From NCBI GenBank assembly GCA_051382295.1, contig JBBCAW010000078.1:13558-77557 (forward strand): DNA of 64,000 bases, written 5' to 3'. Source of the DNA: Bdellovibrionota bacterium FG-1. GTDB taxonomy: Bacteria > Bdellovibrionota > UBA1018. The notes under the pieces are model-generated. The model was not told the DNA's origin and made no database searches. It saw only the letters and a program-made list of their open reading frames with translations. Numbering within the stretch: position 1 is the stretch's first letter; every line of letters begins with the position of its first letter. This document shows positions 42,582 through 63,060 of this stretch, in pieces. A program made the translations under genes and the position numbers.

Positions 42582-42749
42582 GTCTCATTTTACCAATAAT
42601 CGTAACAAATGGAAATGATGGATAAAACGCTCCCTGAGTTACCCTCCATCGGAATATTTATGCATCAAGACGGAACCTGTAATCATGACAAGTAGTTAAG
42701 CCTAAGAAATCACGGCATAATACGACCAGCCCTTAATTTACCAAAACAC

Positions 42750-42776
42750 TCAAGTTTTATTATAGAATAACGATAG
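42750..42776 (+). promoter_or_regulatory. sigma28/FliA-like promoter, copy 1
   Basis: TCAAGTTT-N11-AACGATAG vs consensus TAAAGTTT-N11-GCCGATAA. Confidence 0.6.
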
Positions 42777-42793
42777 GAGGACTACGAGGGTCT

Positions 42794-45259
42794 ATGTCCG
42801 TATCCCGGTATATCCCATTACTCGCCTACTGCCTATTCGCCGCAGGGCTGATGTCATGCGATGATTCGGGCGTCACCACGACCGTGACGATCGAACCCAC
42901 GCCTATCGTACCGACTCCCGTCGTATCCAGTGATATCAGCTTCGCGGGCGCGACGGGGGCGATCAACCTGGACGGCACCCAGATCACGATTTCCTGGAAC
43001 GCGGCCACGGGCACTTTTGTTCGTTATCGCGTCTACGAAGTGCAAGCCGATGGAAGTCTCAGTACCATCGCCTCGCTGCCTTCTTCCATCACCTCGTACA
43101 CCGCCACCGGCCTGACCGTCGGAACCCTCCATAGCTACATCGTTCGTACCGTGGATGCCGCCAACGCCACCGACGGCAATACCGTGGTCGTGAGCGCGAT
43201 GACTTATGCCGGAATCAGCTCCACCAGCGGGATTGGGCAGACTTCCGCGACGCTGAAGTTTGCGGCCTGTAATATAGCCGATAGCGTGAACATCTATTGC
43301 TCGCTCCGGGGGGGCGCCTACGCGCTGACCGCAACGGTGGCGGCCACGCAAACCTCCGCGTCCCTCACCGGACTTCAAAGCGGTGCAAGTTATACCTGCA
43401 AAGCATTGGCAGTCAGCCAGCTTGGCTTCGAAGACGGCAACACGGCCACCAAGACTTTTCAAACGGTGCCCACTCACACCGCCAACTACAAAGGACCGAT
43501 CCTCGTCCAAGCTTTCGGGGAGGCCGGGGATGCTTCATGGACGCCCTACACAGGCCAACCCAAAGCTCGACAAGTCAGGATTACGTGGAAACCATTTACC
43601 GGCGCCAACGCCTCCACGCTCTACAAGCTCGTCCGCGTAGCAAAAGATGGCGTCATCGATACCACGGTGACCAACGCTTGTACTGCGGCCACAAACAGCT
43701 CATGCGTGGTGCAATGCCCTGCGAGCGCGATCACAGGTACCGTGATCAGTGACGACTCGGCTAATCTCATCGGCACGGCCCCCAAAACCTGTACGGACAA
43801 CAACGTCGCGGCATCACCCACTCAGTACGATTACTACATCGCACAGGTAATAAACGGATGGACCGAAGAGTCGCCCACCGCCGCCAATGGGGGCGATAGC
43901 GCTTACCGAATCACGGTACCGATCCCGCCGCATGATATGGTGCTCGTGCATCGAGATTCGGCCAATTATGAAATGTGCAATCTCATGGGCAAATCCGACA
44001 TGGATCCAACCCATCACCAACGCTGCGCCTATACCGGGCTCGGCGCGGTTCCGACTAACTCCAATCCGGGCAATCCGGCGCTCAATCTGGATCCAGGCTA
44101 TTATGATTTTGGTTACAATTTTTTTGTGGATCGTTGGGTGGCGGGGTGTAATTGGAGTCCGAGTGCGGCGACTACGAACGGCACCGGTAAATGCGGCGCG
44201 GGCCGCACCAACGGCGATTGCTTTGGCAATGTAAACCCCGACGCGAGCCTCGGCGTGGACGGCAACGTCTACTATGACTGGAGCGGTGGTTACTGCTGGG
44301 TGAACGTCGCGCAGACGTGGAGGCAGATGAATGAAACATCACTGACGAGTTCGCAACGCTTGCAAGCCTACACGAACACCCCCAGTACAACCGTTAAAAA
44401 GCCGCCCTTAGTCTACTTTGATCAAAACCGCGGGGCCGATATCTGCGCCGCCGTGACCGACCCAGATTATGGCGCTAAAAGACTTTTGAGACGCCGCGAG
44501 CAGATCGTCGCGTCGGCGTGGCCTTCAATTACGGGCGAACCGCACGCCGTGAATGATAGCGAAATCAATTATCTCGAAGGCGGCATGAATCACCCCATCA
44601 CCCACGCTTGCAACTCGAACATTCATTACGGCGTCAGCGCGGTCGGCAAGACGTTCAATGATTCGGGATATGAACTCGCCCGAAGCGCGGCATCCGGACC
44701 GGAGTCGTTTGTGATCGGGAGCACGAGTACCGCCAACTGTATTTCGCGTTTTGGCGCCCAAGATATGGCCGGAAACGTGCTGCAGTGGATCAGCGACCAG
44801 CTCGGTACTTGTGCTGCGGCCACGCACTCCTGCGCAGGTGCCACGAGCCTTTTGGATAGTGGCAACACCGATTTGAGCGGCTTTATGTTTGATGGGTTGG
44901 GTGGCGGCACGGGCAATCACGGCCCAGGTGGGGGTGCGGCCGCCGTAACGGCCTGGCAACTCTCTCTGGGTACGTTCAGTTCTACTTATTTTTCCGTGCC
45001 GCTCGGGCTCCCTCTCGTTGGCAATGATAGCGGTAATGCTGTGACGACCAGTAACTTTGGCTCAGTCGGCGCCAAATTTCATAGCAACTACATTTCGCTC
45101 AACACGGATGTCGCCACTGGTGTCCCTGCCCGAGGGGCGTATGTCGGGGGCCATTGGAGTTATGGTTCGTATAATGGCCGTTTCACGTTAATGGTAGGCA
45201 ATATCCCGACAACTGCTGACTCTGGAATCGGCATCCGTTGTGGGCTTCCGGCGGAGTAG
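42794..45259 (+). CDS. Lipoprotein paralog 1: Thr/Pro linker, 2x FN3, FGE-sulfatase/C-type-lectin-fold C-terminal domain
   Basis: Lipobox LMSC; FN3 W..Y..L..Y patterns; FFVDRW, KRLL..RE, FGAQDMAGNV-x-QW, GGHW, IGIRC. Confidence 0.85.
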   Translation: MSVSRYIPLLAYCLFAAGLMSCDDSGVTTTVTIEPTPIVPTPVVSSDISFAGATGAINLDGTQITISWNAATGTFVRYRVYEVQADGSLSTIASLPSSITSYTATGLTVGTLHSYIVRTVDAANATDGNTVVVSAMTYAGISSTSGIGQTSATLKFAACNIADSVNIYCSLRGGAYALTATVAATQTSASLTGLQSGASYTCKALAVSQLGFEDGNTATKTFQTVPTHTANYKGPILVQAFGEAGDASWTPYTGQPKARQVRITWKPFTGANASTLYKLVRVAKDGVIDTTVTNACTAATNSSCVVQCPASAITGTVISDDSANLIGTAPKTCTDNNVAASPTQYDYYIAQVINGWTEESPTAANGGDSAYRITVPIPPHDMVLVHRDSANYEMCNLMGKSDMDPTHHQRCAYTGLGAVPTNSNPGNPALNLDPGYYDFGYNFFVDRWVAGCNWSPSAATTNGTGKCGAGRTNGDCFGNVNPDASLGVDGNVYYDWSGGYCWVNVAQTWRQMNETSLTSSQRLQAYTNTPSTTVKKPPLVYFDQNRGADICAAVTDPDYGAKRLLRRREQIVASAWPSITGEPHAVNDSEINYLEGGMNHPITHACNSNIHYGVSAVGKTFNDSGYELARSAASGPESFVIGSTSTANCISRFGAQDMAGNVLQWISDQLGTCAAATHSCAGATSLLDSGNTDLSGFMFDGLGGGTGNHGPGGGAAAVTAWQLSLGTFSSTYFSVPLGLPLVGNDSGNAVTTSNFGSVGAKFHSNYISLNTDVATGVPARGAYVGGHWSYGSYNGRFTLMVGNIPTTADSGIGIRCGLPAE

Positions 45260-45293
45260 GTGGGCGCTCTGTGGTCACGGCTTTGCCGCGCAG

Positions 45294-45623
45294 TTAAGCG
45301 GCGTACTTCTTTCGCTTCTCGGCCAGGAGCTTGGATGCCTTTTTGCTCACACGCGCAACCTCTTTTTTGAAAGTCCCTGCGGCGCCCTCGGGAAAGAGGA
45401 TGAAAGCCGGGTCAATGCCCAGGGCAGCGCCAATGAGGCTTGCCCGACGGGTGCCAATCTCCACCTTGTCATTTTCGATCAAACTCAGGTTCGACTCTGC
45501 AATTTCGGTCATTTCACCCAGTTCTTTGAGCGTAATTTTCCAGTTTCGCCGGTGAGCCCGGATCACCGAGCCGGAAGTGGAGGGGGCCTTAACTTGACTA
45601 ATGACTTCCAATAAATTTTTCAT
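45294..45623 (-). CDS. XRE-family HTH antitoxin (HigA-like)
   Basis: ITLKELGEMTEIAESNLSLIENDK HTH; downstream of toxin. Confidence 0.8.
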   Translation of the reverse strand: MKNLLEVISQVKAPSTSGSVIRAHRRNWKITLKELGEMTEIAESNLSLIENDKVEIGTRRASLIGAALGIDPAFILFPEGAAGTFKKEVARVSKKASKLLAEKRKKYAA

Positions 45624-45625
45624 AA

Positions 45626-45928
45626 TTACTTCTCCTTTTTCTGATAATCGTGGTCTGCGGTGATCCTGACTACCATGACCGTGATGATCTGATCTTCCAC
45701 TTTGTAGATGATCCTACCTTTGTAGCTGAAGCCCGACGAACGATGTTCCGACCACTCACCAAAGAGCGGATGATCAGCCCACTTGTGGGGCTGCTCTTGC
45801 AACTTTTCAGGCCCATACTTCACGACGGTTTTTGCCCAAGTCTGGATGGTTTCAAGATCATCGGCCGAGAGGCTTTTAGTTTTAAATATTTCCGCAGCCT
45901 CATCAGTGATAATCACTTTCCATGCCAT
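45626..45928 (-). CDS. RelE/YafQ/HigB-superfamily toxin
   Basis: W-x-V, DHPL-x-GEW..HRS, RIIY, V-x-V-x-I..HDY. Confidence 0.8.
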   Translation of the reverse strand: MAWKVIITDEAAEIFKTKSLSADDLETIQTWAKTVVKYGPEKLQEQPHKWADHPLFGEWSEHRSSGFSYKGRIIYKVEDQIITVMVVRITADHDYQKKEK

Positions 45929-46103
45929 ATTATCGTTTATAATAACTTATTAAAAAGAGTAAGTCTAGTTCCATTCTTGATCAGGGCCTGAGCTAGGGCT
46001 TTGGGAAGCGCATTGGAACGGCACCTGAAACCGGGGGATACCACCCATCGTCGTCCGCCTAAGTGCATGAAATTATTAAGTTACCTATATTTAACCAAAA
46101 CAC

Positions 46104-46130
46104 TCAAGTTTTATTATACAATAACGATAG
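46104..46130 (+). promoter_or_regulatory. sigma28/FliA-like promoter, copy 2
   Basis: TCAAGTTT-N11-AACGATAG. Confidence 0.6.
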
Positions 46131-46147
46131 GAGAACTAAGAGGCCCT

Positions 46148-48607
46148 ATGTCGGAATCTCGGTCTATTCCATTACTCGCCTACTGCCTATTCGCCATAGG
46201 GCTGGCGTCTTGCGTGACCCCCGACGAAGCAGGACTGACGCCCACTGCCACCCCCTCAGCCGAGCCTACGCCTGCCGCCTCGAACGTGATGAGTTTTGCG
46301 GGCGCGACCCAAGCCGTTAACTTGGACGGTACGCGAATCCAAATTTCCTGGAATGCGGCTGCGGGAGATTTTGCGCACTACCTCGTGTACGAACTGCAAG
46401 ACGACGGCACCCTCAAGCTCTTGGTGACGCTGCCGCCGGCCCTCACCACGTACCCGGTCATCGGCCTGACCGCCGGGACGCTGCATAACTACATCGTTCG
46501 CGCCGTAGATGCCTCGAACGTCACCGATGCAAATCACGTCGTCGTGAGCGCAATCACCTACGCCGGAATCAGCTCAACGAGCGGCGTCGGCCAGACTTCC
46601 GCGACGCTAAATTTTCCAGCCGGCGGGAGCGCCGCGCAGCTCAACCTCTATTGCTCCGAACGCGGGGCCGATCCAGCACTCCTCGCCACAGTCGGACCAA
46701 GCGCCACGAGCGCCACGCTCACGGGCCTGAAGCCAGGGACCACTTACGTTTGTAAAGCCCTGGCCCAAAGCTTATTTGGCATCGAGGATTCTAATACCGT
46801 CACCAAGACCTTTCAAACGATACCCACTCATATCACCCATTACAAAGGACCAATCCTCGTGCAGGCGTTCGGGGCGGCCGGAGATGCTTCGTGGACGCCC
46901 TACACGGGCCAACCCAAAAACAGACAAGTCAGAATTACCTGGAAGCCGTTTGCGGGCGCCAGCGGCTCCACGCTTTACAAACTCGTCCGCGTGGCAAAAG
47001 ACGGCATCATCGATACTCTGGTCACAAATGCCTGTACCGCAGGCACCAGTAGCTCATGCGTGGTGCAATGCCCTGCGAGCGCAACCACGGGCACCGTGAT
47101 CAGTGACGACTCGGCTAACCTCGTCGGTCAAGCGGCAAAAACCTGCACGGATAATAACGTCGCGGCCTCGCCGACCCAATACGATTACTACGTCACCCAG
47201 GTGATCAGTGGCTGGGTCGAAGAATCGCCGGCCCCCTCAAACGGCGGCGATAGTGCTTACCGCATCACTGTACCCATCCCTCCGCATGACATGGTGCTCG
47301 TGCATCGGGATTCAGCCAATTATGAAATGTGTAGTCTCATGGGCAAGACCGATATGGACCCCACCCATCACCAACGCTGCGCCTATACTGGGCTCGGTGC
47401 GGTTCCAACTAACTCTCATCCGGGTAATCCGGCGCTTAATCTGGAGCCAGGGTATTATGACTTTGGTTACAATCTCTTTATAGACCGTTGGGCGGCGGCG
47501 TGTAATTGGAGCCCGAGTGCGGCGACGGCGGGCAGCACTGGCAAATGCGGAGCCGGGCGCACCAACGGCGACTGCTTTGGCAATGCCTACCCCCCCGACG
47601 CGAGCATCGGCGTGGATGGCAACGTCTACTACGACTGGAACTACGGTATGTGCTGGGTGAACGTCGCGCAGACGTGGATCGACACGACTGGCACAACACC
47701 TACTGCCTCGCAGCGAATGCAAGCCTACACGAACACCCCCAGTACGACCGTCAAAAAGCCCCCCTTTGTGTATGTCACGCAATCCGGGGCGGCTGATACT
47801 TGTGGTGCGGTGATCGACCCGGATTATGGCGCGAAGCGGCTCTTAAGACGTCGTGAGCAAGTCGCCGCGGCCGCTTGGCCCGCACTCGTTGGGGAACCTC
47901 GCGCCATGACAGATAGCGCGATCACTACGCTCTTAAGCGGCTTTGATCACCCCAACGCCCATGTTTGTAACTCGAACACTCATAACGGCGTAAGCGCGGT
48001 CGGCAAGACTTTCAATGATTCAGGATATGAACTCGTCCGAAGCGCGGCATCCGGCCCAGACTCGTTTATGATCGGGAGTACGGGGACGGCCAACTGCGTG
48101 TCTCGTTTTGGCGCGCAAGACCTAGGCGGCAATGATTGGATGTGGATCAGCGACCAGCTCGGAAGTTGCAGTGCCGCTACGCACTCCTGCTCAGGGATCA
48201 CGAGCCCTTTCGATAGCGGCAATACGGATTGGAACGGGTTTCAGTTTGACGGGTTAGGCGGTGCTACGGGCAATCACGGTCCCGGTGGCGGTGCGGTCAA
48301 CATAACGGGGTGGTTTCTCAATATCATTTCGTTCAATGCTACCTATCTTTCCTTGCCACTTGGGCTCCCTCTCGTGGGCAATGATGGCGGCAACGCTACC
48401 ACGATCAGCACCCTCGGCGCAGCCGGCGCCAAACTTCAGTACGACAATTTTGCGCTCTATACGGATAACGGCAATGCCACCCGAGGGGCATATGTCGGAG
48501 GTCCTGTTAATTGGGGTGCCGCTGGACGTTTCATGCTCTACTTGTACCAGCCACCGTCGAACTATGGCTCTACGATCGGTTTCCGCTGTGCGCTTCCGGC
48601 GGAGTGA
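46148..48607 (+). CDS. Lipoprotein paralog 2 (FN3 + FGE-sulfatase/CLec fold)
   Basis: Start ATG 46148 by homology to the other paralogs; lipobox LASC; ends IGFRCALPAE. Confidence 0.85.
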   Translation: MSESRSIPLLAYCLFAIGLASCVTPDEAGLTPTATPSAEPTPAASNVMSFAGATQAVNLDGTRIQISWNAAAGDFAHYLVYELQDDGTLKLLVTLPPALTTYPVIGLTAGTLHNYIVRAVDASNVTDANHVVVSAITYAGISSTSGVGQTSATLNFPAGGSAAQLNLYCSERGADPALLATVGPSATSATLTGLKPGTTYVCKALAQSLFGIEDSNTVTKTFQTIPTHITHYKGPILVQAFGAAGDASWTPYTGQPKNRQVRITWKPFAGASGSTLYKLVRVAKDGIIDTLVTNACTAGTSSSCVVQCPASATTGTVISDDSANLVGQAAKTCTDNNVAASPTQYDYYVTQVISGWVEESPAPSNGGDSAYRITVPIPPHDMVLVHRDSANYEMCSLMGKTDMDPTHHQRCAYTGLGAVPTNSHPGNPALNLEPGYYDFGYNLFIDRWAAACNWSPSAATAGSTGKCGAGRTNGDCFGNAYPPDASIGVDGNVYYDWNYGMCWVNVAQTWIDTTGTTPTASQRMQAYTNTPSTTVKKPPFVYVTQSGAADTCGAVIDPDYGAKRLLRRREQVAAAAWPALVGEPRAMTDSAITTLLSGFDHPNAHVCNSNTHNGVSAVGKTFNDSGYELVRSAASGPDSFMIGSTGTANCVSRFGAQDLGGNDWMWISDQLGSCSAATHSCSGITSPFDSGNTDWNGFQFDGLGGATGNHGPGGGAVNITGWFLNIISFNATYLSLPLGLPLVGNDGGNATTISTLGAAGAKLQYDNFALYTDNGNATRGAYVGGPVNWGAAGRFMLYLYQPPSNYGSTIGFRCALPAE

Positions 48608-50112
48608 GTGGTCTCCTGAATCACTCTCTCCAGCTGGGTAATCTCCTCGTCCTTGAGCATGTGAAAGAACTTCGCGCGCTTCGCCGCGCTCAGGCGCCCG
48701 CCATTATGGAGGCAAAATTTGATGAACTGGTCGATCTTCTGGTCCGGCATATCGATTATTCCCTGGATTCCATTTTTAATCCGGTCGTAACTTACCAGGA
48801 GGTTAAGTTCCGTGGGTAGCTCGGTTTCAATGGTTTCCTCCAGGACCTGAAACATTGTTTCGCAGATCTTCGTCATGTCAATGGATCTGTAGTGCCTTGC
48901 TGTTTCGTTTCTCACTTCCATGGTGCCATCGGCATCCAGGGTGTAATCGATCAATGGCATGAGAGCGGTTGAAAAAGCTTCGAGGATTTCGTCGTACCTT
49001 CGGATATTCCTTAGAAGTGTCGCCGAGACCGGAAAGATCACCCCCTCTGGCGTGAACCGGCTAGCCGCCAGGATGTGGTGAATCAGAAAGCGGTGAATGC
49101 GGCCATTGCCGTCATCGAAGGGATGGATAAAAACGAAGCCAAAGGCGATGGCTGTGGCATGAACCACGGGATAAACTCCGGACCTGAACATTCGCGCGTG
49201 GGATTGCAGCAGGCCGTCCATGAGGGGGCGCACGTCTTGTGGTTTTGGCGGGACGTAATGAACCAGTTCGCGGTCCAAGCTGATGCTTTCCCCGATGTAG
49301 TTTTGGGTGGTCCGATAATCCGGATTGATAAAGCGCGCGTCAACGATCTGGTTTTGAAGCCAGACGAGCTGTTCGCGCGTGAGAAAATCTTTTCTACCCG
49401 CCGCTTTAAGTGTCGCGACGAAGCGGGAGACGCGCGCCTCGTCAGGCTGGTCGCGCTCGATCTCGTAGGAGGACTTCGTTTCCTTCGTATAGAGATAATG
49501 AACAGCGCGGCTGATCACGTCTTCCGGATACTCGCGGATGATGTTGACGGTTCGTTGGTCGAGTTTTTTGTCCTCGAACTGCGCGAGCAGCGGAGTGCGC
49601 CTGACGAAGGGACAAAACGTTCGATCGCCTAAAAGGTTGTCGTTGATCCGGTGTCTGCGGCTTTGGACTCGCACCCCGGTGTAATAGCGGATGGGGTCCA
49701 GAAGGTCGACGTAGTTTCCCATGTCGAGATCGGGAATTCCGTTGAGCCGATTGCCGGTCAGCAGTTCATACAAATACCAGAGCTGACGTGCTCGGGTGCC
49801 AGTTCGTTTTTTGAGGACATATTCGACGATTGAGGCAGGGTCGATTTTCTCGAAGACCGCTCCCAAGATCTCCAGATTCACTCCTTCGTACCTCAGGGCA
49901 AAGCTGACCTGCGAAACCAGGTCGGTGCCTGGATCGTAGCTCTTGGGGTACTGCTCCTCGATCAAGCCATTGGCCTGCTGGAAGGTCTTCCTTCCCCCGC
50001 GCTCGGCGATGGTGCTTGTTTGGAAATGGGGGATGACTTTCAGATCGAACTGCCTCACGAGCGCCTGGTAACCGACCTGCTTCCATTCATTTGTTGACAA
50101 AGAGTTCTCCAA
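48562..50112 (-). CDS. Fic-family protein
   Basis: HPFDDGNGRIHR Fic motif; ETKSSYEIE; 3' end overlaps paralog 2 by 46 bp; start uncertain. Confidence 0.9.
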   Translation of the reverse strand: MENSLSTNEWKQVGYQALVRQFDLKVIPHFQTSTIAERGGRKTFQQANGLIEEQYPKSYDPGTDLVSQVSFALRYEGVNLEILGAVFEKIDPASIVEYVLKKRTGTRARQLWYLYELLTGNRLNGIPDLDMGNYVDLLDPIRYYTGVRVQSRRHRINDNLLGDRTFCPFVRRTPLLAQFEDKKLDQRTVNIIREYPEDVISRAVHYLYTKETKSSYEIERDQPDEARVSRFVATLKAAGRKDFLTREQLVWLQNQIVDARFINPDYRTTQNYIGESISLDRELVHYVPPKPQDVRPLMDGLLQSHARMFRSGVYPVVHATAIAFGFVFIHPFDDGNGRIHRFLIHHILAASRFTPEGVIFPVSATLLRNIRRYDEILEAFSTALMPLIDYTLDADGTMEVRNETARHYRSIDMTKICETMFQVLEETIETELPTELNLLVSYDRIKNGIQGIIDMPDQKIDQFIKFCLHNGGRLSAAKRAKFFHMLKDEEITQLERVIQETTHSAGSAQRKPIVEP

Positions 50113-50400: not shown

Positions 50401-51048
50401 AATCGAAGTGTTGCATTACACACAACAAACAAGTCTCAGCAAGCCCCCAGGGCACTAGCCTATCAACAGTGGCAGCCGCAGGAACAGATCTTTCTCGCAG
50501 CGGTCATCCTCCACGACTCTCTTCGCCGCGCTTCATCGCTTACCCAATTCGTGGCAGAATTCGTGCGCATTCATTCCCAGTCGACAGCGCTCAAGCTTTC
50601 GCCCGAAAAGATTCTTGGTCGGGTTTCACGCGCTGTCGCTCATTTTCAGCGTCGTAATCTTGTAACGATTCAACGCGCCGGCAACGAAGTGAGCATTAAC
50701 TTTTCTGCGCCCGAGGTTCTTTGGGCGAGCCTTTGCCGTGATTCCCAACCACTTGTCACGCGCACTCACCCGGTCTTTTTCGATACGAAGGATCTCGACC
50801 TGTATCCGGCAAGCGCTCTATCCGCGCTAAGCCACTATTCTGATCTCTTGCCACCAAAAGTTCCAACATTTGCGATGAGCCGCGCAGAATGGGCGGCCTG
50901 GACGAAGAGGCCGGTTCAAGGCGGTCAAGCCGCGCCCACCGCTAACGTCGAGGTCTGGAAAACAAACCCGAGGTATCTCGAATTAAAAGGAACCGTGAAT
51001 CCGCTTCTGCTCGCCGTGAACTGTAGGCGCGGCCACCACCAGAGATAA
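50401..51048 (+). pseudogene. 5'-truncated wHTH/AbiEi-like (MarR-type) regulator fragment
   Basis: Frame open from 50401 behind stops, with no start codon before the internal GTG at 50551; SALSHYS..P...FA and EVWK-x-NP..L...V-x-PL motifs. Confidence 0.5.
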
Positions 51049-51172
51049 GGTGGTCGCCGATCTACGGAAATTCATTATTTTAACAGAGGAACGCCGGTGA
51101 TGACCGTCATCAAATTGGAAATGGAATTACAAGATCAGCCCCAGATAATGTCTAAGTTATTTTGGACAGTTC

Positions 51173-51336: not shown

Positions 51337-51342
51337 AATTTA

Positions 51343-51741
51343 TCACCTGCCAGAAGCTGTTTTACGCCTAGGTATCGTTGCTGCCATTAAACTCTCACGA
51401 ACCACACGCGCCACATCGGAAAGAGCCATACGAGAAACCAGTTGATCAGTGGCAAACTGATGCAAAACACTGCTCATCAAGGTTTGGTAACCGACTCCCT
51501 GCTTTTCGGCCAAAATGCGGATAGCCTCCACGTCCGCCCCATTCAGTCGAATATTGGTGCGAACCTCCTTAGTTCTTTTTATTGTCTGATCGCAGGCGGC
51601 GGCCTCCAATTGGGACCGAACCAAAACTTCTTCGCGCGAAGTTGCTTGACGCCATTCTCCACGTTCAATGCTATCGAACAACGCCTGTTCATCATCATCC
51701 ATCGGTATTGTGCCTTTGAGGGGTTTAATTCTGGATCTCAT
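51343..51741 (-). CDS. CopG/BrnA-like RHH antitoxin
   Basis: SIERGEW, RTNIRL...D...I...A...G-x-GYQTLM-x-SVLH. Confidence 0.8.
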   Translation of the reverse strand: MRSRIKPLKGTIPMDDDEQALFDSIERGEWRQATSREEVLVRSQLEAAACDQTIKRTKEVRTNIRLNGADVEAIRILAEKQGVGYQTLMSSVLHQFATDQLVSRMALSDVARVVRESLMAATIPRRKTASGR

Positions 51742-51743
51742 AT

Positions 51744-51995
51744 TTACTCCTTCTCGATTTCATATGCCGTACGAAAAAAAATCAGTTTTGCAGTTACCAC
51801 AGCGGCCACGCCCCACATTTTTTTATCGACTCCCACAACGATAATCATATGGTTCTTGTGGATTTTTTGATGTCCATTGTAGTGAAACGCACCACAAAAA
51901 CCTCCTGCAAGATAGGCATCCAAAATGTCTTCAAATGAAACACCCCGCTTTGCTTTTAACTTCTGATTTTTTTCTGGCTTCCATCCGTACCGCAT
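51744..51995 (-). CDS. BrnT-like toxin
   Basis: W-x-PEKN-x-KLK-x-KRGVSFEDI, FRTAY; TTGACA-16-TATTCT promoter 6 nt before ATG 51995. Confidence 0.75.
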   Translation of the reverse strand: MRYGWKPEKNQKLKAKRGVSFEDILDAYLAGGFCGAFHYNGHQKIHKNHMIIVVGVDKKMWGVAAVVTAKLIFFRTAYEIEKE

Positions 51996-52168
51996 GATCA
52001 AAGAATAATATCTGTGTGCCTAATGTCAACATTATACTGAGGGCCGGGTGCTGCCATTAAACTCTCACGAACCACACGCGCCACATCGCAGCAAGCCCCA
52101 GTCAGAACAAACAAAACCAATAATTACATAGCGATACCTATCCACCCACCAAGCATTAACCAAAACGC

Positions 52169-52195
52169 TCAAGTTTTATTATACAATAACGATAG
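52169..52195 (+). promoter_or_regulatory. sigma28/FliA-like promoter, copy 3
   Basis: TCAAGTTT-N11-AACGATAG. Confidence 0.6.
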
Positions 52196-52212
52196 GAGGA
52201 CTACGAGGGTCT

Positions 52213-54678: not shown

Positions 54679-54814
54679 GGCATTCGCGATGGAAAACATG
54701 ACTTAAACAACCCCCTCTATTAACCATAAATGGCTAATAGTACCCCCTACTTTAGACCAGAAATAAAGACTTTCCGTTATTTTTCAATAAGTTACCAATA
54801 TTTAACCAAAATAC

Positions 54815-54841
54815 TCAAGTTTTACTGTACAATAACGATAG
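54815..54841 (+). promoter_or_regulatory. sigma28/FliA-like promoter, copy 4
   Basis: TCAAGTTT-N11-AACGATAG. Confidence 0.6.
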
Positions 54842-54856
54842 GAGGAATGAGGACCT

Positions 54857-57328
54857 ATGTCGGAATTCCGTTATGCCCCATTACTCGCCACCTTGCTGTT
54901 GGCCTCAGGTCTAGCGGCTACGCTAGCGTCCTGCGTGGCCCCCGAGGAAGCCGGGCTGACGCCCACGGTGACACCGACAGACACGCCCACACCTGTTGCA
55001 TCGAGCGATATCGGCTTTGCGGGCGCGACCGAGGCGGTCAACTTGGACGGTACGCGGATCCAGATTTCCTGGAGCGCGGGCACGGGGACTTTTACTTATT
55101 ACCGCGTCTACGAAACACAGTCTGATGACAGTCTCGCGCCCGTGATCAGACTCCCCAAAACCGCAACGAATTTCATTCACGCCGGCCTGACAGCGGGCAC
55201 CTCACATAGCTATGTAGTCCGCACCGTCGACGACGCCAACGCCACCGATGGCAATAACGTGGTCGTAAGCGCGATGACTTACGGCGGCCTCAGCTCCACG
55301 AGTGGGGTCGGTCAGACTTCGGCAACGCTCAATTTTCCGGCTGGCAAGAGCGCCGCACGGGTCAAGCTCTATTGCTCGGAACGCGGGGCGGCTCCAGCCC
55401 TGATGGCAACGGTCACCTCGACTGCGACCAGCGCGACGCTGACGGGTCTGAAACCCGGGACTACCTACGTGTGTAAGGCTCTGGCCCAAAGCCTGCTGGG
55501 CTTCGAAGACGCTAATACCGTCACCAAAACTTTTCAGACCGTGCCAACCCATACTGCCAAATACAAAGGACCGATCCTCGTACAAGCCTTCGGAGCGGCG
55601 GGTGATGCTTCGTGGATCGCCCCGTCAGGCCAGCCCAGTGCTCGACAAGTCACGATCACTTGGAAGCCGTTTGCGGGCGCTAACGCCACGACGCTCTACA
55701 AGTTAGTCCGCGTGGCAAAAGATGGCGTCATCGATACAACCGTCACCAACACCTGTACCGCAGGCACAAACAGTTCATGCGTGGTTCAATGTCCCGCGAG
55801 CGCGACCACCGGAAATATCGTGAGTTACGACTCGTCTAACCTCGTCGGTTCGGCACCCAAAACCTGCACCGATAAAGCCGTCGCGGCTTCGCCAGCCAAG
55901 TACGATTACTACATCACTGAGGTTGTTAACGATTGGATCGAGGAGTCGCCCAATGTCACCAACGGCGGTGATAGCGCTTACCGGATCACCGTGCCCATTC
56001 CTCCTCATGACATGGTTTTAGTGCATCGGGACGCGGTCAATTACGAAATCTGCAATCTCATGGGCAAATACGACATGGACCCCCTCAATCACCAGCGGTG
56101 CGCCTACACGGGGCTGGGCGCGGTTCCGACCAACTCCAATCCAGGCAATCCAGGGCTCAATCTCGATCCGAGCCATTATGATTTTGGCTACAATCTCTTT
56201 GTGGATCGTTGGGCGGCCGCGTGCAATTGGAGTCCGAGTGCCGCGACTGCGGGCAACACCGGAAAATGCGGCGCCGGGCGCACCAACGGCGATTGCTTTG
56301 GCACTGGAACTCCGTCTGCAAGCATCGGCGTGGACGGCAACGTCTTCTATCAATGGGATCAGGGTTACTGCTATGTAAACGTCGCACAAACTTGGATCGG
56401 CGTAGGTAGCCCTGGCCCGACCGGTCCGCAACGATTACAATCCTACACGAACACCCCCAGTACGGCTTTCAAGAAACCACCGATGACCTCCATTGGTCAA
56501 AAGATCTCAGCGGACACTTGTGCTGCGGCGGCGGACCCGGATTATGGACCCAAGAGACTCCTGCGACGCCGCGAGCAGATCGCGGCCTCCGCGTGGCCGT
56601 ATATCACGGGTGAGCCGCGCGCCATGACGGATAACGCAATTCAGGTGCTTGAAATCGGTACCGATCATCCCAATACCCATGCTTGCAACTCGAACCAGCG
56701 CAACGGCGTCAGCGTCACGGGGACATTCAATGATTCAGGATATGAACTCGCTCGAAGCACGGCGGCCGGACCGGACGCGTTTGTCATCGGGAGCGCGGGC
56801 ACGAGCAACTGCGTGTCTCGTTATGGCGTACAAGACATGGTCGGCAACGTTGGGTTTTGGCTCAGCGACCAACTCGATACTTGCACTCCGGCCGCGCACA
56901 CCTGCTCCGGTGCCACCAGCACGGTGGATAGCGGCAACACCGATTTAAACGGCTTTCAGTTTGATGGGCTAGGCGGCGCTACGGGCAACCACGGTCCGGG
57001 CGGAGGCGCCGCAAATATCACAGGGTGGTATCTCGCTACCAATACCTTTAGTACCAATTACTTTTCATTGCCGCTGGGGATGTCCCTCGTCGGCAATGAC
57101 AATGGCAACGCTCTCTTGACCACCACCTTTGGTACAAGCGGTGCCAAAATGCATGGCGACTATGTTTTGCTCTACACCGATAACTACGCGGGGGGGCCCC
57201 GAGGGGCCTGGGCCGGGGGCTATTGGTGGAACGGCGACCTCAATGGGCGCTATATGTTCTGGATGAACGGTATGGCGGCCGGCGCAGGCTGGCAGATCGG
57301 TTTTCGCTGCGCAGTGCCGGCGGAGTGA
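54857..57328 (+). CDS. Lipoprotein paralog 4 (FN3 + FGE-sulfatase/CLec fold)
   Basis: Lipobox LASC; YGVQDMVGNVGFW, GGYW, IGFRCAVPAE. Confidence 0.85.
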   Translation: MSEFRYAPLLATLLLASGLAATLASCVAPEEAGLTPTVTPTDTPTPVASSDIGFAGATEAVNLDGTRIQISWSAGTGTFTYYRVYETQSDDSLAPVIRLPKTATNFIHAGLTAGTSHSYVVRTVDDANATDGNNVVVSAMTYGGLSSTSGVGQTSATLNFPAGKSAARVKLYCSERGAAPALMATVTSTATSATLTGLKPGTTYVCKALAQSLLGFEDANTVTKTFQTVPTHTAKYKGPILVQAFGAAGDASWIAPSGQPSARQVTITWKPFAGANATTLYKLVRVAKDGVIDTTVTNTCTAGTNSSCVVQCPASATTGNIVSYDSSNLVGSAPKTCTDKAVAASPAKYDYYITEVVNDWIEESPNVTNGGDSAYRITVPIPPHDMVLVHRDAVNYEICNLMGKYDMDPLNHQRCAYTGLGAVPTNSNPGNPGLNLDPSHYDFGYNLFVDRWAAACNWSPSAATAGNTGKCGAGRTNGDCFGTGTPSASIGVDGNVFYQWDQGYCYVNVAQTWIGVGSPGPTGPQRLQSYTNTPSTAFKKPPMTSIGQKISADTCAAAADPDYGPKRLLRRREQIAASAWPYITGEPRAMTDNAIQVLEIGTDHPNTHACNSNQRNGVSVTGTFNDSGYELARSTAAGPDAFVIGSAGTSNCVSRYGVQDMVGNVGFWLSDQLDTCTPAAHTCSGATSTVDSGNTDLNGFQFDGLGGATGNHGPGGGAANITGWYLATNTFSTNYFSLPLGMSLVGNDNGNALLTTTFGTSGAKMHGDYVLLYTDNYAGGPRGAWAGGYWWNGDLNGRYMFWMNGMAAGAGWQIGFRCAVPAE

Positions 57329-57448
57329 GCTTAACGGTGCCTACTGCGGCTCAAAAACCGGTGAGCCATTTAGGGTTTATGCTCCTATTCGCGGAGCCAT
57401 ATGTTGGCGAATGACAAATGATCGCGAGATTGGTATTTTCTCGCGGAT

Positions 57449-58549
57449 ATGGCTTATAGCGTAAAGAGACGGAATTTGCAGCCGAAGCTCAAGACCAAAA
57501 AACGTAGCAAGACAAACAGCAAGGCGCTCGCTACTCGCGAAGATCGGCTTTTTCACGACGTCCGGCAGTTGATCCAATCGACTCGCGAAAAAGTCGCTCA
57601 AACCGTCAACTCCGGCCAAGTTTTATTGTATTGGAGTATCGGAAGCCGGATTCGGCGTGAGGTTTTGCAGGGCAAACGCGCGGAATACGGAAAAGCAATT
57701 GTCTCCGCGCTGGGTAGACAATTGAGTGCTGAGTTTGGGGCCGGGTTTACGACGTCCAGCTTGTTTCAGATGGTCCGGTTTAACGAGACATTTCCCAAAA
57801 GGGAGATAGTGTACGCACTGTGTACACAATTGGGTTGGTCGCATTTTCGACAAATCGCCTATCTCAAAACTCCGTTACAGCGCGACTTTTACGCGGAAAT
57901 GTGTCGAATCGAGCAATGGAGCACACGTGCGCTACAGAAGAAAATCCAGGGAATGCTTTTTGAGCGCACGGCCCTTTCCAAAAAGCCCGCAAAACTCGCA
58001 AAACAGGAAATCAAGGCATTGCGCCACGACGACAAGCTCACCCCGGATCTTGTTTTTCGTGATCCGTATCTGCTCGACTTTCTAGGACTCAAAGACACGT
58101 ATGCGGAAAAGGACCTGGAATCAGCGATTCTTCGGCAGATGGAAAGTTTTCTCACCGAACTTGGCAGTGACTTCGCCTTTCTCGGACGTCAAAAACGGAT
58201 CACTATTGGGAACGAAGACTATTATCTCGATCTATTATTTTATCATCGAAGGCTAAAACGGCTTGTCGCCATCGAGTTGAAACTTGGGTCGTTTCAGGCT
58301 GCCGATAAGGGCCAGATGGAACTTTACCTGCGCTGGCTAGATAAACATGAACGACAGTCCGGAGAAAAATCGCCGATTGGTCTGATCTTATGCGCGGGCA
58401 AGTCGGACGAACACGTGGAGCTGCTACAAATCGAAAAGAGTGGCATCAAGGTTGCCACTTACTTGACCAAACTTCCGCCGCGAGCGCAGCTTGAGAAAAA
58501 ACTGCATGACGCGATTACTTTGGCGCGTGGACGTTTCAATCGAAAATAG
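57449..58549 (+). CDS. yhcG: YhcG/DUF1016 PD-(D/E)XK nuclease-family protein
   Basis: LYWSIG, YGK, LGWSHF, RDPYLLDFL, DLLFYHR..VAIELK, GQMELYL, PIGLILC. Confidence 0.92.
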   Translation: MAYSVKRRNLQPKLKTKKRSKTNSKALATREDRLFHDVRQLIQSTREKVAQTVNSGQVLLYWSIGSRIRREVLQGKRAEYGKAIVSALGRQLSAEFGAGFTTSSLFQMVRFNETFPKREIVYALCTQLGWSHFRQIAYLKTPLQRDFYAEMCRIEQWSTRALQKKIQGMLFERTALSKKPAKLAKQEIKALRHDDKLTPDLVFRDPYLLDFLGLKDTYAEKDLESAILRQMESFLTELGSDFAFLGRQKRITIGNEDYYLDLLFYHRRLKRLVAIELKLGSFQAADKGQMELYLRWLDKHERQSGEKSPIGLILCAGKSDEHVELLQIEKSGIKVATYLTKLPPRAQLEKKLHDAITLARGRFNRK

Positions 58550-58673
58550 CACCACGGGACAGGCCAATGTCAGTTTTTGAAGAAGGCGTCTAGATTTACC
58601 TGGTCATCGATAAGCCCCGTATAGTGGGCCAGTATTACGATGACTGAAGTTCCTTTTTTCACGATACCGCGCG

Positions 58674-58710
58674 GGTATCGACATCCGTTGTGGGCGCGGT
58701 CCAGGCGGAG
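58674..58710 (+). pseudogene. Relic of the 3' end of a lipoprotein paralog
   Basis: ggtatcgacatccgttgtgggc matches paralog 1 45224-45245 at 20/22, followed by ccaggcggag. Confidence 0.6.
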
Positions 58711-58730
58711 AGAACTCAACGATGTCCACC

Positions 58731-59258
58731 TTACCGCTCCACAAGGCTCTGAATAATCGTAGTCATGGGCAGCCAGAGCTTCATGGGCGAGTCCCTGAAG
58801 GAAATAAAACCATGCTTTTCGTAGAAGCTCTTGGCCTTTTCGTCCTTGGCGTCCACCACAACCCCGGCGATCCCCATCGCCTCAGCGGCCTGGACGGCCT
58901 TTTGGCAGGCATGCCCCAGGAGAAGAGCCCCGAGTCCTCTTCCTTGGATGGATTGATCAATCGCAAGTCGTCCCAGTCGACACACCGGAATGGGGTATTT
59001 GGGAAGCCGTTTGGTTTCCTTGTCCGATAATTCTTCAAATCGGATGCTGCCCGCAGCGAGGGTATAGAAGCCTAAGATACGTTTGGGCTCGGCCTTTGTC
59101 ACGGCCACAAAGGTTTGCCCAAGGTGCCTGACCGCCTGCTGCCGGGCTTGGGTCTTGAGAAAGGTGTTGAGCGGTTCAATGCCACAATCAAACCCGGCTC
59201 TGTCGTGGTTTGCTCCCAATTTTTGAATTTCAAGCTCCGGAAGCCCCGTTTTTGTCAC
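58731..59258 (-). CDS. GNAT acetyltransferase toxin (AtaT/TacT family)
   Basis: HDRAGFDCG..LN-x-FL, GFYTL, LGRLAID..QGRGLG, VDAK..A..FY..HGF. Confidence 0.92.
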   Translation of the reverse strand: MTKTGLPELEIQKLGANHDRAGFDCGIEPLNTFLKTQARQQAVRHLGQTFVAVTKAEPKRILGFYTLAAGSIRFEELSDKETKRLPKYPIPVCRLGRLAIDQSIQGRGLGALLLGHACQKAVQAAEAMGIAGVVVDAKDEKAKSFYEKHGFISFRDSPMKLWLPMTTIIQSLVER

Positions 59259-59548
59259 TAGAGCCCCGCTTTTTTTACGTGTTGCATGGCCTTTTTAAGG
59301 GCGAGTGTCGCTTTAGGCGGGTTTTCCAGGTTTGCCAGAAAGAGATCTCGGTCGCGATTGGAAAGTGTGAGGTTTTCTTCGTCGGCCAAGTCCCTTTTGG
59401 CGGCCCTGAACGCGACTCTGACCATGTAAGAGCTGGTGCTCATGCCATTGAGCTCCGCTGCTTTTTCAATGGTTTCCTTTTGATTCTGGTCGAGACGTAA
59501 ATCCACCCGGTCCGTTTTCTTCATTTTCTGTGCATTAGGTTGAGCCAT
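59258..59548 (-). CDS. DUF1778 RHH antitoxin (AtaR/TacA family)
   Basis: RVDLRL..QKE-x-IEKAA, LS-x-RD...F...LENPP; GAGGTG SD before ATG 59548. Confidence 0.9.
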   Translation of the reverse strand: MAQPNAQKMKKTDRVDLRLDQNQKETIEKAAELNGMSTSSYMVRVAFRAAKRDLADEENLTLSNRDRDLFLANLENPPKATLALKKAMQHVKKAGL

Positions 59549-59979
59549 AAAACACCTCATTCTGAGTATAGACATATTGTACGGAATATGTACACACAAT
59601 AATTGATTCCTAAAAACCCTTTAATTACGTATGCCACCTTACCGCTCCACGAGAATGTTAAACATTTTTCGTGAGGACCAGCGATGCCGCGCTTGAGCAT
59701 CTTCGCACCTTCTAGATTTCGCCAGCGGGCAGTGGGATCGTTTGATCCGGGGACTGGGGCGTCTGGAAACCGGGATGGGCACCACGCTCAACAGTGAAAT
59801 GACGTTCATACAGGGCGCTTTCGGGCTTTTTGGGGTTAATCCCTTAGTCTCTGGTCGAACGAGAATAGATGGTCTCGTTGGATTGTAATTCTGGCGAAGT
59901 CGGTGTGACTCCGATGGACACCTTCGCTCTCAATACAGACCTTGCAATCGGCACCGTCCGGGGGTGGCAACTTCTCTTC

Positions 59980-60132
59980 TCAGACAGCAAAGATCATTTC
60001 TTGCTTGAACTCGCCGTCACAGCCAAAGCAAAGACGATTGTAACCGGCGACAGCGGCATTGTTGGCCTCATCAAATACGGCGAGATTACCTTTCAAACGC
60101 CGGAAGAGTTTTGTGAGGAGATGCGACTGTAA
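59980..60132 (+). pseudogene. C-terminal fragment of a PIN-domain toxin
   Basis: DSKDHFLLELAVTAKAKTIVTGD...TPEEF; N-terminal PIN motif absent; left boundary approximate. Confidence 0.6.
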
Positions 60133-60260
60133 CCCCCTACTTTAGACCAGAAATAAGGACTGTCCCACCCACCTCGTTTTTCATTTTGTGGGTTTTTGTT
60201 GCGGTCATCGAACGCATGAAGCTTGGGGATGAGGTAGTTGTATTTCACGCTTTGACATAC

Positions 60261-60293
60261 ATCGGTTTTAGCTGTGGGCTGGCAGCGGAGTAG
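60261..60293 (+). pseudogene. Relic of the 3' end of a lipoprotein paralog
   Basis: atcggttttagctgtgggctggcagcggagtag = IGFSCGLAAE*, cf. IGFRCGLPAE*. Confidence 0.7.
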
Positions 60294-60369
60294 AATTTAA
60301 CTTTTTCCGCAGATCACCTGGCAGAAGCCGTTTTACGGCGAATATGAGTGGGTGGGAAGGATTGGATGG

Positions 60370-60705
60370 TTAGCTGGCGCGATCCTTCAAAAGCCCCATG
60401 CGGGCAAGCTTCTTCACCTCATCAACCTCAAGAAGTTCGTCGTTGACGTACATGTGAATCACCGAAGCGATGAGGGTTTGGTATCCCATTCCGCGCTTCT
60501 GGGCTGCACGTTTGATGGCGGTCAAGTCCTGCGGCTCGATCCGGATATTGGTCCGCGCGTCTTTACGACGCTCGTCACTCCCAACCCTTGCTGCCTCCAC
60601 GAATATTTTGCCGGCGGTCGCTGAATTCTTCTTCCATTCGCCACGCGCAATGCTGGCTTCGATTTCCTTTTCCTCTGGGGTCAGATCAAATTTATTTTTT
60701 GCCAT
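60370..60705 (-). CDS. CopG/BrnA-like antitoxin (paralog of 51343-51741)
   Basis: SIARGEW, RTNIRI, GMGYQTLIASVIH; AGGAGG SD. Confidence 0.82.
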   Translation of the reverse strand: MAKNKFDLTPEEKEIEASIARGEWKKNSATAGKIFVEAARVGSDERRKDARTNIRIEPQDLTAIKRAAQKRGMGYQTLIASVIHMYVNDELLEVDEVKKLARMGLLKDRAS

Positions 60706-60714
60706 AAGCTCCTC

Positions 60715-60954
60715 CTAGTATGCCGTTCGCATTAAAATGACCGTTTTTGAAACCGTTACCGGTACCCGCCACTCGTCTCCATCCACTTCCACTACGAGGA
60801 CAATCTGGCCCGCATGAATTCCCTTGGTGCCCTTGTAACTGTACCAGTCACGAAGGCCGCCATCCCGAATGGCATCTTCAATCTCTTCAAATGAAATGCC
60901 CCGCTCTTCTTTGAGCCATTCATTTTTTTCGGGCTTCCATGTCAATCGTTTCAC
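60715..60954 (-). CDS. BrnT-like toxin (paralog of 51744-51995)
   Basis: WKPEKNEWLKEERGISFEEI, MRTAY; GTG start 6 nt after TTGCAA-17-TACAAT. Confidence 0.75.
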   Translation of the reverse strand: MKRLTWKPEKNEWLKEERGISFEEIEDAIRDGGLRDWYSYKGTKGIHAGQIVLVVEVDGDEWRVPVTVSKTVILMRTAY

Positions 60955-61207
60955 GTTTTTATTGTAACCCTTTTGTGTACCTATTGCAAGTCTGTATACT
61001 TGCCAAATGTCTCGTATATTCGATCTAATGGTGATTGCAACGGATAACAATATGTGCCTTTTGTTATCACATTGCATTACAATTTATGTCAAACCGGAAC
61101 TTTTAACTACCTGGCTGGACGCTCCCAAGATTGTGGTGAGTACATCAAAAAGAAGTAGCGACCAAAACTCGTGAAACAGTATCTTAATAACTCGTAACTC
61201 GCTCCGC

Positions 61208-61376
61208 CATCGTTATCGGACGATAAACAGCGCCAGTCATAATATAATATCGTTATTTGACGATATTATAATGAAAACGCTCACATTTATCTTCATCTAA
61301 CGATATTTTTAAACTATTATCGCTATAGGGCGATATTTTACGACAAAACAGACTACTGTATTGCCCAATGGCGATA
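61208..61376. promoter_or_regulatory. Five HipB-type operators TATCG-N8-CGATA
   Basis: Copies at 61208, 61248, 61288, 61318, 61359 (three carry one mismatch). Confidence 0.8.
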
Positions 61377-61394
61377 TTTAATGAGGAGACGACA

Positions 61395-61610
61395 ATGACG
61401 CTTGGTGAACAGCTCAAACACATACGCAAGACCTACGGCCTTACACAAAAAAAACTCGCCGACCAAAGTGGGGTGAGCTTCTCTTTCATCAATAGTGTGG
61501 AAACCGGTAGCAGTTCCATGCGGCTTGAGACTCTCAATAAAGTTCTCGCTCTGGTGGGCTGTGAAATAGCGATTGTCGACAAAAAAACCAAGAAAGTGAT
61601 TGGAGCATAG
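61395..61610 (+). CDS. hipB: HipB-like XRE antitoxin
   Basis: LTQKKLADQSGVSFSFINSVETG HTH; GAGGAG SD. Confidence 0.85.
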   Translation: MTLGEQLKHIRKTYGLTQKKLADQSGVSFSFINSVETGSSSMRLETLNKVLALVGCEIAIVDKKTKKVIGA

Positions 61611-61614
61611 TCTG

Positions 61615-62955
61615 ATGACAGACGAAAAAATAAAAGCCAACAAAGCTGAAGTACGCCTCAGAGGTGAGCGGGCAGGAATCCTGATCAGACAATCCGACAA
61701 AATGTATTTGTTTAAATATGATGATCAATATCTAACGAAAAAAGACCCCATTGCGATTGCCATAAGTTTTCCCATAAATGTGAGCGAGTACCTATCGCCT
61801 CAATTGCACCCATTTTTTGACAATTTAATTATGGAAGGCTGGTTGCTCAATCAGACTGAAAAACAATTCCATGTAGACAAAAAAAACCGATGGGGCCTGC
61901 TTATGTTGGCAGGAGCCAACCCGGTAGGCGCCGTTAGCGTCCATGCGCTAGATACGGCTGGACATCCAATGAGCGATAGTACTGACATTGAAGAAGAGGG
62001 AACTCAGTTATTCCCGGTTAAGACTGCGGCGAATCCTGGCATTTGTTCCTTTTGTCTCAGGACCGTAAAAGAACCAGAAGAATTTCATCTCGCCTGTTAC
62101 AGAAAACTATGGGGAACAGCAAAAGCGCTTTTTGTTAAACTAGACGAGTTGCAACCCCTTCAAAGTTTTTCTAAAACTGTAAATGACGGCAGTATTTCGG
62201 GTGCTCAAAGAAAAGGGCTTTTTGCGCTAAACAAAAATGAACTCCGCGTAAACTCCGCCGACTCTCTTTATATCCTTAAACCAGACGGCGACTATCCTGA
62301 ACTTCCTGCCAACGAGCACTTAACAATGACGGCGGCAAAACATTTAGGCTTCGACGTTCCCCCAACAGGGCTTATTAGCATTGAGGGTGTCGGACTAGTA
62401 TTCGTGATTAGGCGATTTGACCGCATAGCGCCGAATTACCGGCTGCTGCTCGAGGATATGGCCCAAATCTACGAAGAAGCGAGTGACGACAAATATTCCC
62501 TGAGCCTCGAAAAGGTGGGACAGGCGATTTTGGAGCATACTCAAGCTGGCCCCTTGAACCTCAACGACTATTTTCGGCGAATACTCTTCTGTTTTTTGAC
62601 CGCCAACGGAGACATGCACCTGAAAAACTGGTCTTTGCTTGAAATGAACAAAAATCCGGGCGTCTTCCGCCTAAGTCCTGCCTACGACTGGTTAAATACA
62701 CGAATCGCGTTACCGCGAGAAAAGGATGAGCTGGCCATCCCAATGGCCGGAAAGAAAAGAAACATGCAAAAATCCTACTTCAAACGGTTTGCCATTAATG
62801 AGTTGGGGTTAAAAGAACACTACGTTGAAAAGGTCTTTGCTGAAATTCCAACCTGGACACGGACGCTCGAAGAATTAATTCCACACTCCTTCTTGAGCGA
62901 GAATATGAAAAAAGCATACCTCTCCGTTCTTCAGCAAAGGACTACAGCATTGTAA
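61615..62955 (+). CDS. hipA: HipA-family Ser/Thr kinase toxin with N-terminal HipA_N domain
   Basis: F-x-YD..Y, PFFDNL..EG, SISGAQRK, YILKP, NEH, RFDR, NGDMHLKNWS, LSPAYD. Confidence 0.92.
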   Translation: MTDEKIKANKAEVRLRGERAGILIRQSDKMYLFKYDDQYLTKKDPIAIAISFPINVSEYLSPQLHPFFDNLIMEGWLLNQTEKQFHVDKKNRWGLLMLAGANPVGAVSVHALDTAGHPMSDSTDIEEEGTQLFPVKTAANPGICSFCLRTVKEPEEFHLACYRKLWGTAKALFVKLDELQPLQSFSKTVNDGSISGAQRKGLFALNKNELRVNSADSLYILKPDGDYPELPANEHLTMTAAKHLGFDVPPTGLISIEGVGLVFVIRRFDRIAPNYRLLLEDMAQIYEEASDDKYSLSLEKVGQAILEHTQAGPLNLNDYFRRILFCFLTANGDMHLKNWSLLEMNKNPGVFRLSPAYDWLNTRIALPREKDELAIPMAGKKRNMQKSYFKRFAINELGLKEHYVEKVFAEIPTWTRTLEELIPHSFLSENMKKAYLSVLQQRTTAL

Positions 62956-62987
62956 TTTCGAAGCCGCCTTGACAATAATTCCATCCA

Positions 62988-63060
62988 CCGTCGCGGCTTC
63001 GCCGGCCAAGTACGATTACGGGGGGGGGCCCCGAGGGGCATTTGCCGGGGGCTATTGGTG
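62988..63060 (+). pseudogene. Collapsed relic of a lipoprotein paralog (two distant segments fused)
   Basis: 62988-63019 matches 55878-55909 (31/32); 63017-63060 matches 57185-57228; joined at a shared TAC. Confidence 0.8.

Follow-up and report, generated by a model that had tools for sequence, protein, structure and literature searches.

The genome of Bdellovibrionota bacterium FG-1 encodes four large paralogous lipoproteins, referred to here as A to D, within a 64,000-nt stretch of DNA (the window) that ends where its contig ends. These proteins belong to a family that is, in related genomes, a genuine target of diversity-generating retroelements (DGRs), and the four copies are probably tandem duplicates of such a DGR-target lipoprotein that have ceased to be rewritten by a DGR and would form a fixed repertoire of binders in a decayed integrative island with toxin-antitoxin (TA) cargo. 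The best reading of the locus is that DGR-target lipoproteins of a phylum rich in predators have been orphaned here and have multiplied inside a TA-rich island. An initial annotation, made from the sequence alone, had described the region as an array of variable surface lipoproteins interleaved with TA modules; the key point that it missed is that A to D belong to a DGR target family and are cut off from a DGR.

The four paralogs and their predicted fold

The genes and the repeated block in front of them are located in the window as follows.

42794..45259, + strand: paralog A, lipoprotein with FN3 domains and a CLec (C-type-lectin) domain of the formylglycine-generating enzyme (FGE) type, 821 aa; its last ~135 nt correspond to the DGR variable region of relatives
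46148..48607, + strand: paralog B, 819 aa
52213..54678, + strand: paralog C, 821 aa
54857..57328, + strand: paralog D, 823 aa, the copy used for structure prediction; a TA-free gap of 178 nt separates it from C
42734..42793, + strand: shared upstream block of copy A (~64 nt, repeat family D16), including AGGAGG
46088-46147, 52153-52212, and 54799-54856: the same block before B, C, and D

The co-oriented paralogs A to D are 69 to 73% identical in protein sequence, and each contains a lipobox-type Cys (LMSC, LASC, LTSC, and LASC, respectively), a Thr/Pro linker, and two matches to the Pfam fn3 model over the cut-off. Because the copies are only 74 to 76% alike in DNA and the longest exact tract common to them is 64 nt (the range being 25 to 64 nt), the array is, judged by its sequence, neither an assembly collapse nor a duplicated assembly repeat. 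The upstream block likely comprises a promoter and an AGGAGG ribosome site; a promoter scan did not pick it up. The common 3' end, CCGGCGGAGTRR, is the coding end of the family (..PAE-stop) and occurs in the templates of relatives, too; as the family is a DGR target family, it can be understood as the invariant end shared with those templates. The initial annotation had recognized the four proteins of ~820 aa with their lipobox and linker, the upstream block (given as ~60 bp), and the shared 3' end, all of which are borne out. Its two FN3 domains also stand, while its FGE-sulfatase motifs could not be recovered with Pfam (sub-cut-off matches only, E values of 0.013 to 0.07 in three paralogs and no match in B) and were regained at the level of the fold.

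An AlphaFold2 model of paralog D, built on a 69-sequence alignment (predicted local distance difference test score, 90.2; predicted template modeling score, 0.86), was compared with 48,161 representative chains. The highest-scoring chain is that of TaqVP (PDB 5vf4), a DGR variable protein, with a Z score of 21.3 and a root mean square deviation of 3.3 over 275 aligned residues (model residues 248-822), and the prediction confirmed that the C-terminal head has the FGE-type CLec fold, the display scaffold that the initial annotation had proposed. The variable region of TaqVP, which is also its putative binding site, consists of the final 40 residues (PMC6328139; papers given by PMC number are cited from excerpts throughout). 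Three-FN3 fragments align over residues 52-383 of D, suggesting a third FN3-like domain; Foldseek and a sequence search against the PDB returned FN3 matches only.

The next structural matches to D are CalU17 (Z score, 14.1), PorKN (13.7), Mtd (13.6), and TvpA (13.2), and EgtB, CarF, and PvdO also fall within the Z 12 to 14 group. The FGE-like domain could accordingly belong to an enzyme or a structural envelope lipoprotein of the FGE, PvdO, or GldK/PorK type rather than to a binder, but this is highly improbable: TaqVP scores 7 Z units higher, the DGRs mutate exactly the corresponding segment in homologs, and in A to D the segment of the FGE catalytic triad (positions taken from PMC6328139) is variable and Cys-free, lacking the Ser-Cys-Cys set and any other conserved catalytic residue.

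The C-terminal variable segment is the most divergent part of the four proteins, with a nonsynonymous divergence (dN) of 0.68 versus 0.10 in the core and a ratio to synonymous divergence (dN/dS) of 0.57 versus 0.13. Variation is thus concentrated at the predicted binding site. Indels separate the four variable regions. Gene conversion between the copies is only suggestive: informative sites are clustered (90 runs versus 112 expected; p 0.0002), and third positions alone give 58 runs versus 63 (p 0.14). Four more distant family members are encoded elsewhere in the FG-1 draft (C72:3-1316, C41:92926-94179, and C116:4733-13878); two of these are cut by contig ends, and two are long (1360 and 1694 aa) and arranged in tandem.

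The family as a DGR target in relatives

Named homologs of A to D come almost exclusively from Bdellovibrionota. Some match was found in 16 of 60 sampled relatives, in many cases to the FN3 parts only. After removal of 13 duplicate loci and of weak or incomplete matches, 56 related loci with a full-length member were available. A DGR-type reverse transcriptase (RT) adjoins the target gene in 8 of these, 14 carry 2 to 8 copies, and none shows both within the fetched flank. All 8 RT-bearing loci have a template repeat beside the gene and the RT, and Avd was confirmed in most: the bAvd profile scored over its cut-off in L033, L048, L074, L117, and L120, and tblastn detected homologs in L051, L130, and L135. 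The DGR layout in relatives is target, uncharacterized open reading frame (ORF), avd, RT, and template.

Mismatches between template and variable region fall at adenine in 12/12 cases in L033, 14/14 in L048, 12/12 in L074, 17/17 in L117, 16/16 in L120, 16/17 in L130, and 22/23 in L135, i.e., 94 to 100% across the seven loci. In L051 and L062, both from records of metagenome-assembled genomes, gaps of N coincide exactly with the variable region. The A-D family is a genuine DGR target family.

Several loci display variations on this layout. Behind the DGR RT of L074 (13926-15750) lie six ~335-bp units, each consisting of a template-like copy of the target end and a common downstream sequence. 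Unit 1 differs from the variable region at A only (12/12 mismatches), unit 5 provides another template rich in adenine, and the others look mutagenised or broken; the units form a tandem template library. Two such template units each are found in L034 and L120; in the former (G020:C50), the DGR has a target of another kind, 394 aa long, and its template is present in two copies. L123:406-19297 is occupied by a separate, independent array, in which at least eight copies follow directly on one another and a hairpin recurs behind their stops; one of its intervals holds a PIN-Phd pair and an AAA-ATPase fragment, and there is no RT in the fetched stretch. Back-to-back family copies are also carried by the complete genomes of Bdellovibrio sp. 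HCB185ZH and HCB209.

Among the loci with at least 4.5 kb of downstream sequence, an RT was found in 7 of 24 single-copy and 0 of 8 multi-copy loci. A strict exclusion between arrays and DGRs was considered and rejected, as the loci are too few and related and the pair in L136 is homogenised; a partial second copy is present in some “single” loci (L053, L067, L079, and L086). In a quick maximum-likelihood tree, A to D form one clade with a Shimodaira-Hasegawa-like approximate likelihood ratio test value of 100, the nearest row by path being the DGR-linked L117; arrays arose several times in the tree.

The A-D family shares its fold with TaqVP (5vf4), TvpA (2y3c), Mtd (1yu0), and the category “b” targets of Wu et al. 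2018 (PMC5758913), and the homologs of A to D also share with these DGR proteins a C-terminal variable region of ~45 codons, invariant last residues, and adenine-specific template pairs. Unlike those proteins, A to D are lipoproteins whose large head is rich in Cys and is preceded by two to three FN3-like domains; they come from a Bdellovibrionota host and appear to be free of template control.

Paralogs A to D as probable DGR orphans

The FG-1 assembly is a 4.44-Mb draft in 158 contigs, 97.7% complete and 5% contaminated. Avd (PF22296), present in 9 of 60 relatives, was not found in it, nor was a template for A to D (tblastn, nhmmer, and profile search). A scan of 6,428 self-alignments of the draft for adenine-specific repeat pairs left 9 that passed the filter, none of them at a family gene and none convincing, and no conserved hairpin was found behind the stops of A to D. 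Since a shared template would reset silent sites, the silent divergence (pS) of the four copies argues against template control: in the six A-D pairs, it is 0.51 to 0.68 in the variable region versus 0.44 to 0.56 in the core, whereas the control pairs show 0.04 versus 0.72 (L136) and 0.10 versus 0.77 (L048/L117).

For the same reason, it is very unlikely that A to D are served from a distance by an active DGR, be it one acting in trans or one that the assembly lacks. DGRs with remote or tandem targets have been described (PMC4891356 and PMC5758913), the L136 pair is homogenised with no RT in the fetched flank, and FG-1 does hold a DGR-type RT; however, the variable regions of A to D are not homogenised and differ by indels, and the RT is a poor candidate. 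This sole DGR-type RT of the draft (C141:104-1141 plus C89 near 33500-33770) lies behind tRNA-Val, is split by a multi-copy insertion sequence, and has no Avd or template beside it. It is ~31% identical to the family-linked RTs, and its homologs with 53 to 62% identity serve short targets of another type, forming DGRs with CLec2/DUF1566-like targets (judged by eye) in five family genomes as well as one order relative. The RT was therefore rejected as the lost DGR of the A-D family, as it belongs to another DGR clade; the context of a second RT piece (C122) proved unrelated.

That A to D are DGR-orphaned paralogs is thus probable, but several points weigh against the explanation as a whole. A template repeat could sit in the unassembled part of the draft. 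The branch joining the array to the DGR-linked genes has a support of 81, and the DGR label needs 3 to 5 changes on the tree, so direct descent from a DGR-bearing ancestor can only be inferred. In the adenine-bias comparison of A to D with the templates of relatives, the figures are 69/110 versus 185/427 (63% versus 43%) and, for the core control, 830/1585 versus 1964/4328 (52% versus 45%), which gives no clear sign for or against a fossil bias. Lipoproteins with Asp-Asp behind the lipid Cys are retained in the inner membrane in E. coli, and Asp-Asp follows this Cys in copies A and C, which makes surface display uncertain because of the Asp at +2. Finally, dN/dS in the variable region stays below 1, so relaxed constraint is possible. 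The array might even be a neutral amplification in a recombination-prone island, with redundant copies whose ends drift at an unconstrained site; the island is indeed rich in duplicated patches (30 to 330 nt) and broken genes. This alternative is nevertheless improbable, given that all four ORFs are intact at a dS of ~0.8 with a core dN/dS of 0.13 to 0.26, that the upstream block is kept in every copy, and that arrays arose repeatedly.

Comparable systems are the TvpA paralogs of Treponema denticola (PMC4891356) and LdtA of Legionella (PMC5758913), where a genome likewise has several lipoproteins as targets, even if the strain lacks the core DGR; up to eight tandem DGR targets are known (PMC5758913). 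Unlike the extra Treponema targets, which are dispersed and mostly still follow one template, A to D lie in tandem with TA genes in between, each behind its likely promoter, and have diverged at silent sites. Further literature on the subject includes PMC11661182.

The island, its TA cargo, and changes in copy number

Other features of the island are listed below.

41583..41658, + strand: tRNA-Ala(CGC), left island border
41696..41757, - strand: relic, 3' end of a tyrosine-integrase gene, 89% identical over 62 nt to the gene behind tRNA-Arg on contig C83
41855..42581, - strand: MNT-HEPN pair (Polbeta + NTase_sub_bind/HI0074)
45294..45928, - strand: RelE/YafQ-like toxin (below cut-off) and XRE antitoxin, between A and B
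48562..50112, - strand: Fic-domain protein, 516 aa, with no identified partner gene
50462..51119: gene relic common with contig C62 (89-93%)
51343..52001, - strand: BrnT-like toxin and BrnA/CopG-like antitoxin, between B and C, below cut-off
52049-52088: partial antitoxin copy, 40 nt (of the BrnA/CopG-like gene)
57449..58549, + strand: YhcG (DUF1016/PDDEXK) protein
58731..59548, - strand: GNAT toxin and TacA (DUF1778) antitoxin
59869..60132, + strand: PIN-domain fragment
60132..60294, + strand: paralog relic 1, in which 60132-60165 duplicates the pre-D spacer (94%) and 60260-60294 is what remains of a lost paralog, its 3' end
60370..60954, - strand: second BrnT-like/BrnA-like pair, BrnT below cut-off
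61368..62955, + strand: HipB-like helix-turn-helix protein and HipA kinase
62988..63064, + strand: paralog relic 2, two D-like pieces (97% to 55878-55909, 90% to 57185-57232)
63124..63503, + strand: VapB-like gene and VapC pseudogene, 72 codons missing versus the C107 copy
63730..64000, + strand: start of a second HipA-like module, the final 125 nt identical to contig C107

Both the tRNA border and the 62-nt integrase-end relic of a tRNA-integrated island are present. The island probably continues on contig C107, judging from the identical 125 nt; no right-hand att repeat was found on that contig. C107:9500-13021 is a 96-99% identical alternative version of window positions 62842-64000 (HipA-VapBC-HipA2) with an intact VapC and without the paralog relic, and the end of C107 may be either a second haplotype or a duplicate. 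As for synteny at tRNA-Ala(CGC), there is no close relative, and five relatives carry the tRNA in other contexts. Positions 12432-21310 of the window form a second patch rich in cargo, where a PIN gene and a cluster of four AAA-ATPase/DUF4143-like genes were recognized by eye.

The initial annotation was right that this is not an integron: no integrase over the cut-off was found in FG-1 (the best score for the integron integrase IntI, TIGR02249, is 80.5 bits versus a cut-off of 265), a simple scan detected no attC-like sites (a scan of low power, as shuffled sequence gave none either), and none of the dif-like sites was convincing. The TA and defence cargo that it had listed is present, with the reservations that the RelE-like and BrnT-like toxins do not reach curated cut-offs, Fic and YhcG each stand alone rather than in a pair, and VapC is 72 codons short. 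Six TA pairs can be counted (MNT-HEPN, RelE-like/XRE, two BrnT-like/BrnA-like, GNAT-TacA, and HipBA), of which two lie between paralogs (A-B and B-C) and four outside the array, the 178-nt C-D gap having none.

Its claim of copy expansion and contraction agrees with the presence of 1 to 8 copies in related loci and with the two paralog relics, which point to both gain and loss of copies. The pieces of relic 2 are joined across a deletion of ~1.3 kb at a short microhomology. Both relics sit among TA genes, so TA did not prevent copy loss. The further proposal that TA modules are addictive spacers, selected for blocking recombination between paralogs or between the variable and template repeats of DGR loci, fared less well and is unlikely. 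TA pairs do occupy 2 of the 3 intervals between the copies, which share exact tracts of 25 to 64 nt, a PIN-Phd pair lies inside the independent array of L123, and TA pairs were observed between the DGR variable region and its template at L135:11805-13347 (by Pfam) and L130:12156-12737 (by eye). The Vibrio superintegron offers a precedent, and both it and the TA-rich chromosomal islets (PMC12548467) likewise combine numerous TA modules with variable genes at a single locus, although, unlike the superintegron, the island lacks IntI and attC and its repeats are whole paralogous genes. However, four of the six pairs are outside the array, the relics lie within the TA cluster, and VapC and a PIN gene are themselves broken. 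In a Pfam scan of 135 small ORFs (55 to 230 aa, within 3.5 kb) at 45 related loci, TA-type matches were found near only 5 (L058, L072, L123, L135, and L136), some of them beside single-copy genes; an additional pair in L130 was judged by eye. Among the 14 multi-copy loci scanned, TA genes lie between copies only in L123 (in 1 of its 7 intervals), and they are also found behind single DGR-linked genes. Searches with tblastn revealed no homolog of the window TA proteins in L033-L116 and a single one, of YhcG, in L117. The simplest reading is that the TA genes are cargo in an insertion-prone site, with a possible stabilising side effect in repeat-bounded intervals, where the two inter-copy pairs may incidentally penalise A-B and B-C collapse.

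Under the favored explanation, that of duplicated targets released from their DGR, an ancestor would have possessed a target-DUF-avd-RT-template cassette or acquired the gene from such a cassette. Recombination may then have duplicated the gene together with its own promoter block, ordinary mutation would have driven the copies apart, fastest at the predicted binding site, and some copies would later have been lost by deletion at microhomologies, with the TA genes left in place. Each copy would be an autonomous promoter-gene unit whose product is exported, lipid-anchored, and equipped with a distinct predicted binding surface on an FN3 stalk, duplication having replaced hypermutation as the source of diversity. 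Other cells or phages most likely provide the ligand in the form of a surface structure, prey recognition being the boldest option.

The openly accessible literature searched, which does not extend to subscription journals, yielded no description of a Bdellovibrionota DGR-target family; catalogues may list it by accession or under older taxon names. The supplement of PMC5758913 does not name Bdellovibrio or Oligoflexia, and neither term occurs in the main text of PMC8144416 or in those of its supplements that were searched (files 5, 9, and 12 left out). By description, with no homology claimed, the family resembles the MAT fibre adhesins of Bdellovibrio bacteriovorus (PMC10769870), paralogous prey-recognition tips from the same phylum, one of which (Bd2740) has a C-type lectin fold; MATs are trimeric fibres with tip swapping, whereas the A-D family consists of lipoproteins that are DGR targets. 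It is tempting, if rather doubtful, to see here an undescribed prey-recognition family of Bdellovibrionota with two modes of repertoire, a DGR-hypermutated gene or a static array after DGR loss, TA modules guarding the repeat-bounded intervals in both. The recognition of a broad prey range by Bdellovibrio-type predators is only partly explained by MAT fibres (PMC10769870), and the family provides a concrete candidate for prey recognition, its predicted binding site being hypermutated by DGRs in some lineages and multiplied through paralogs in others. The FG-1 locus would represent a natural case of the fate of DGR targets after the loss of the DGR.

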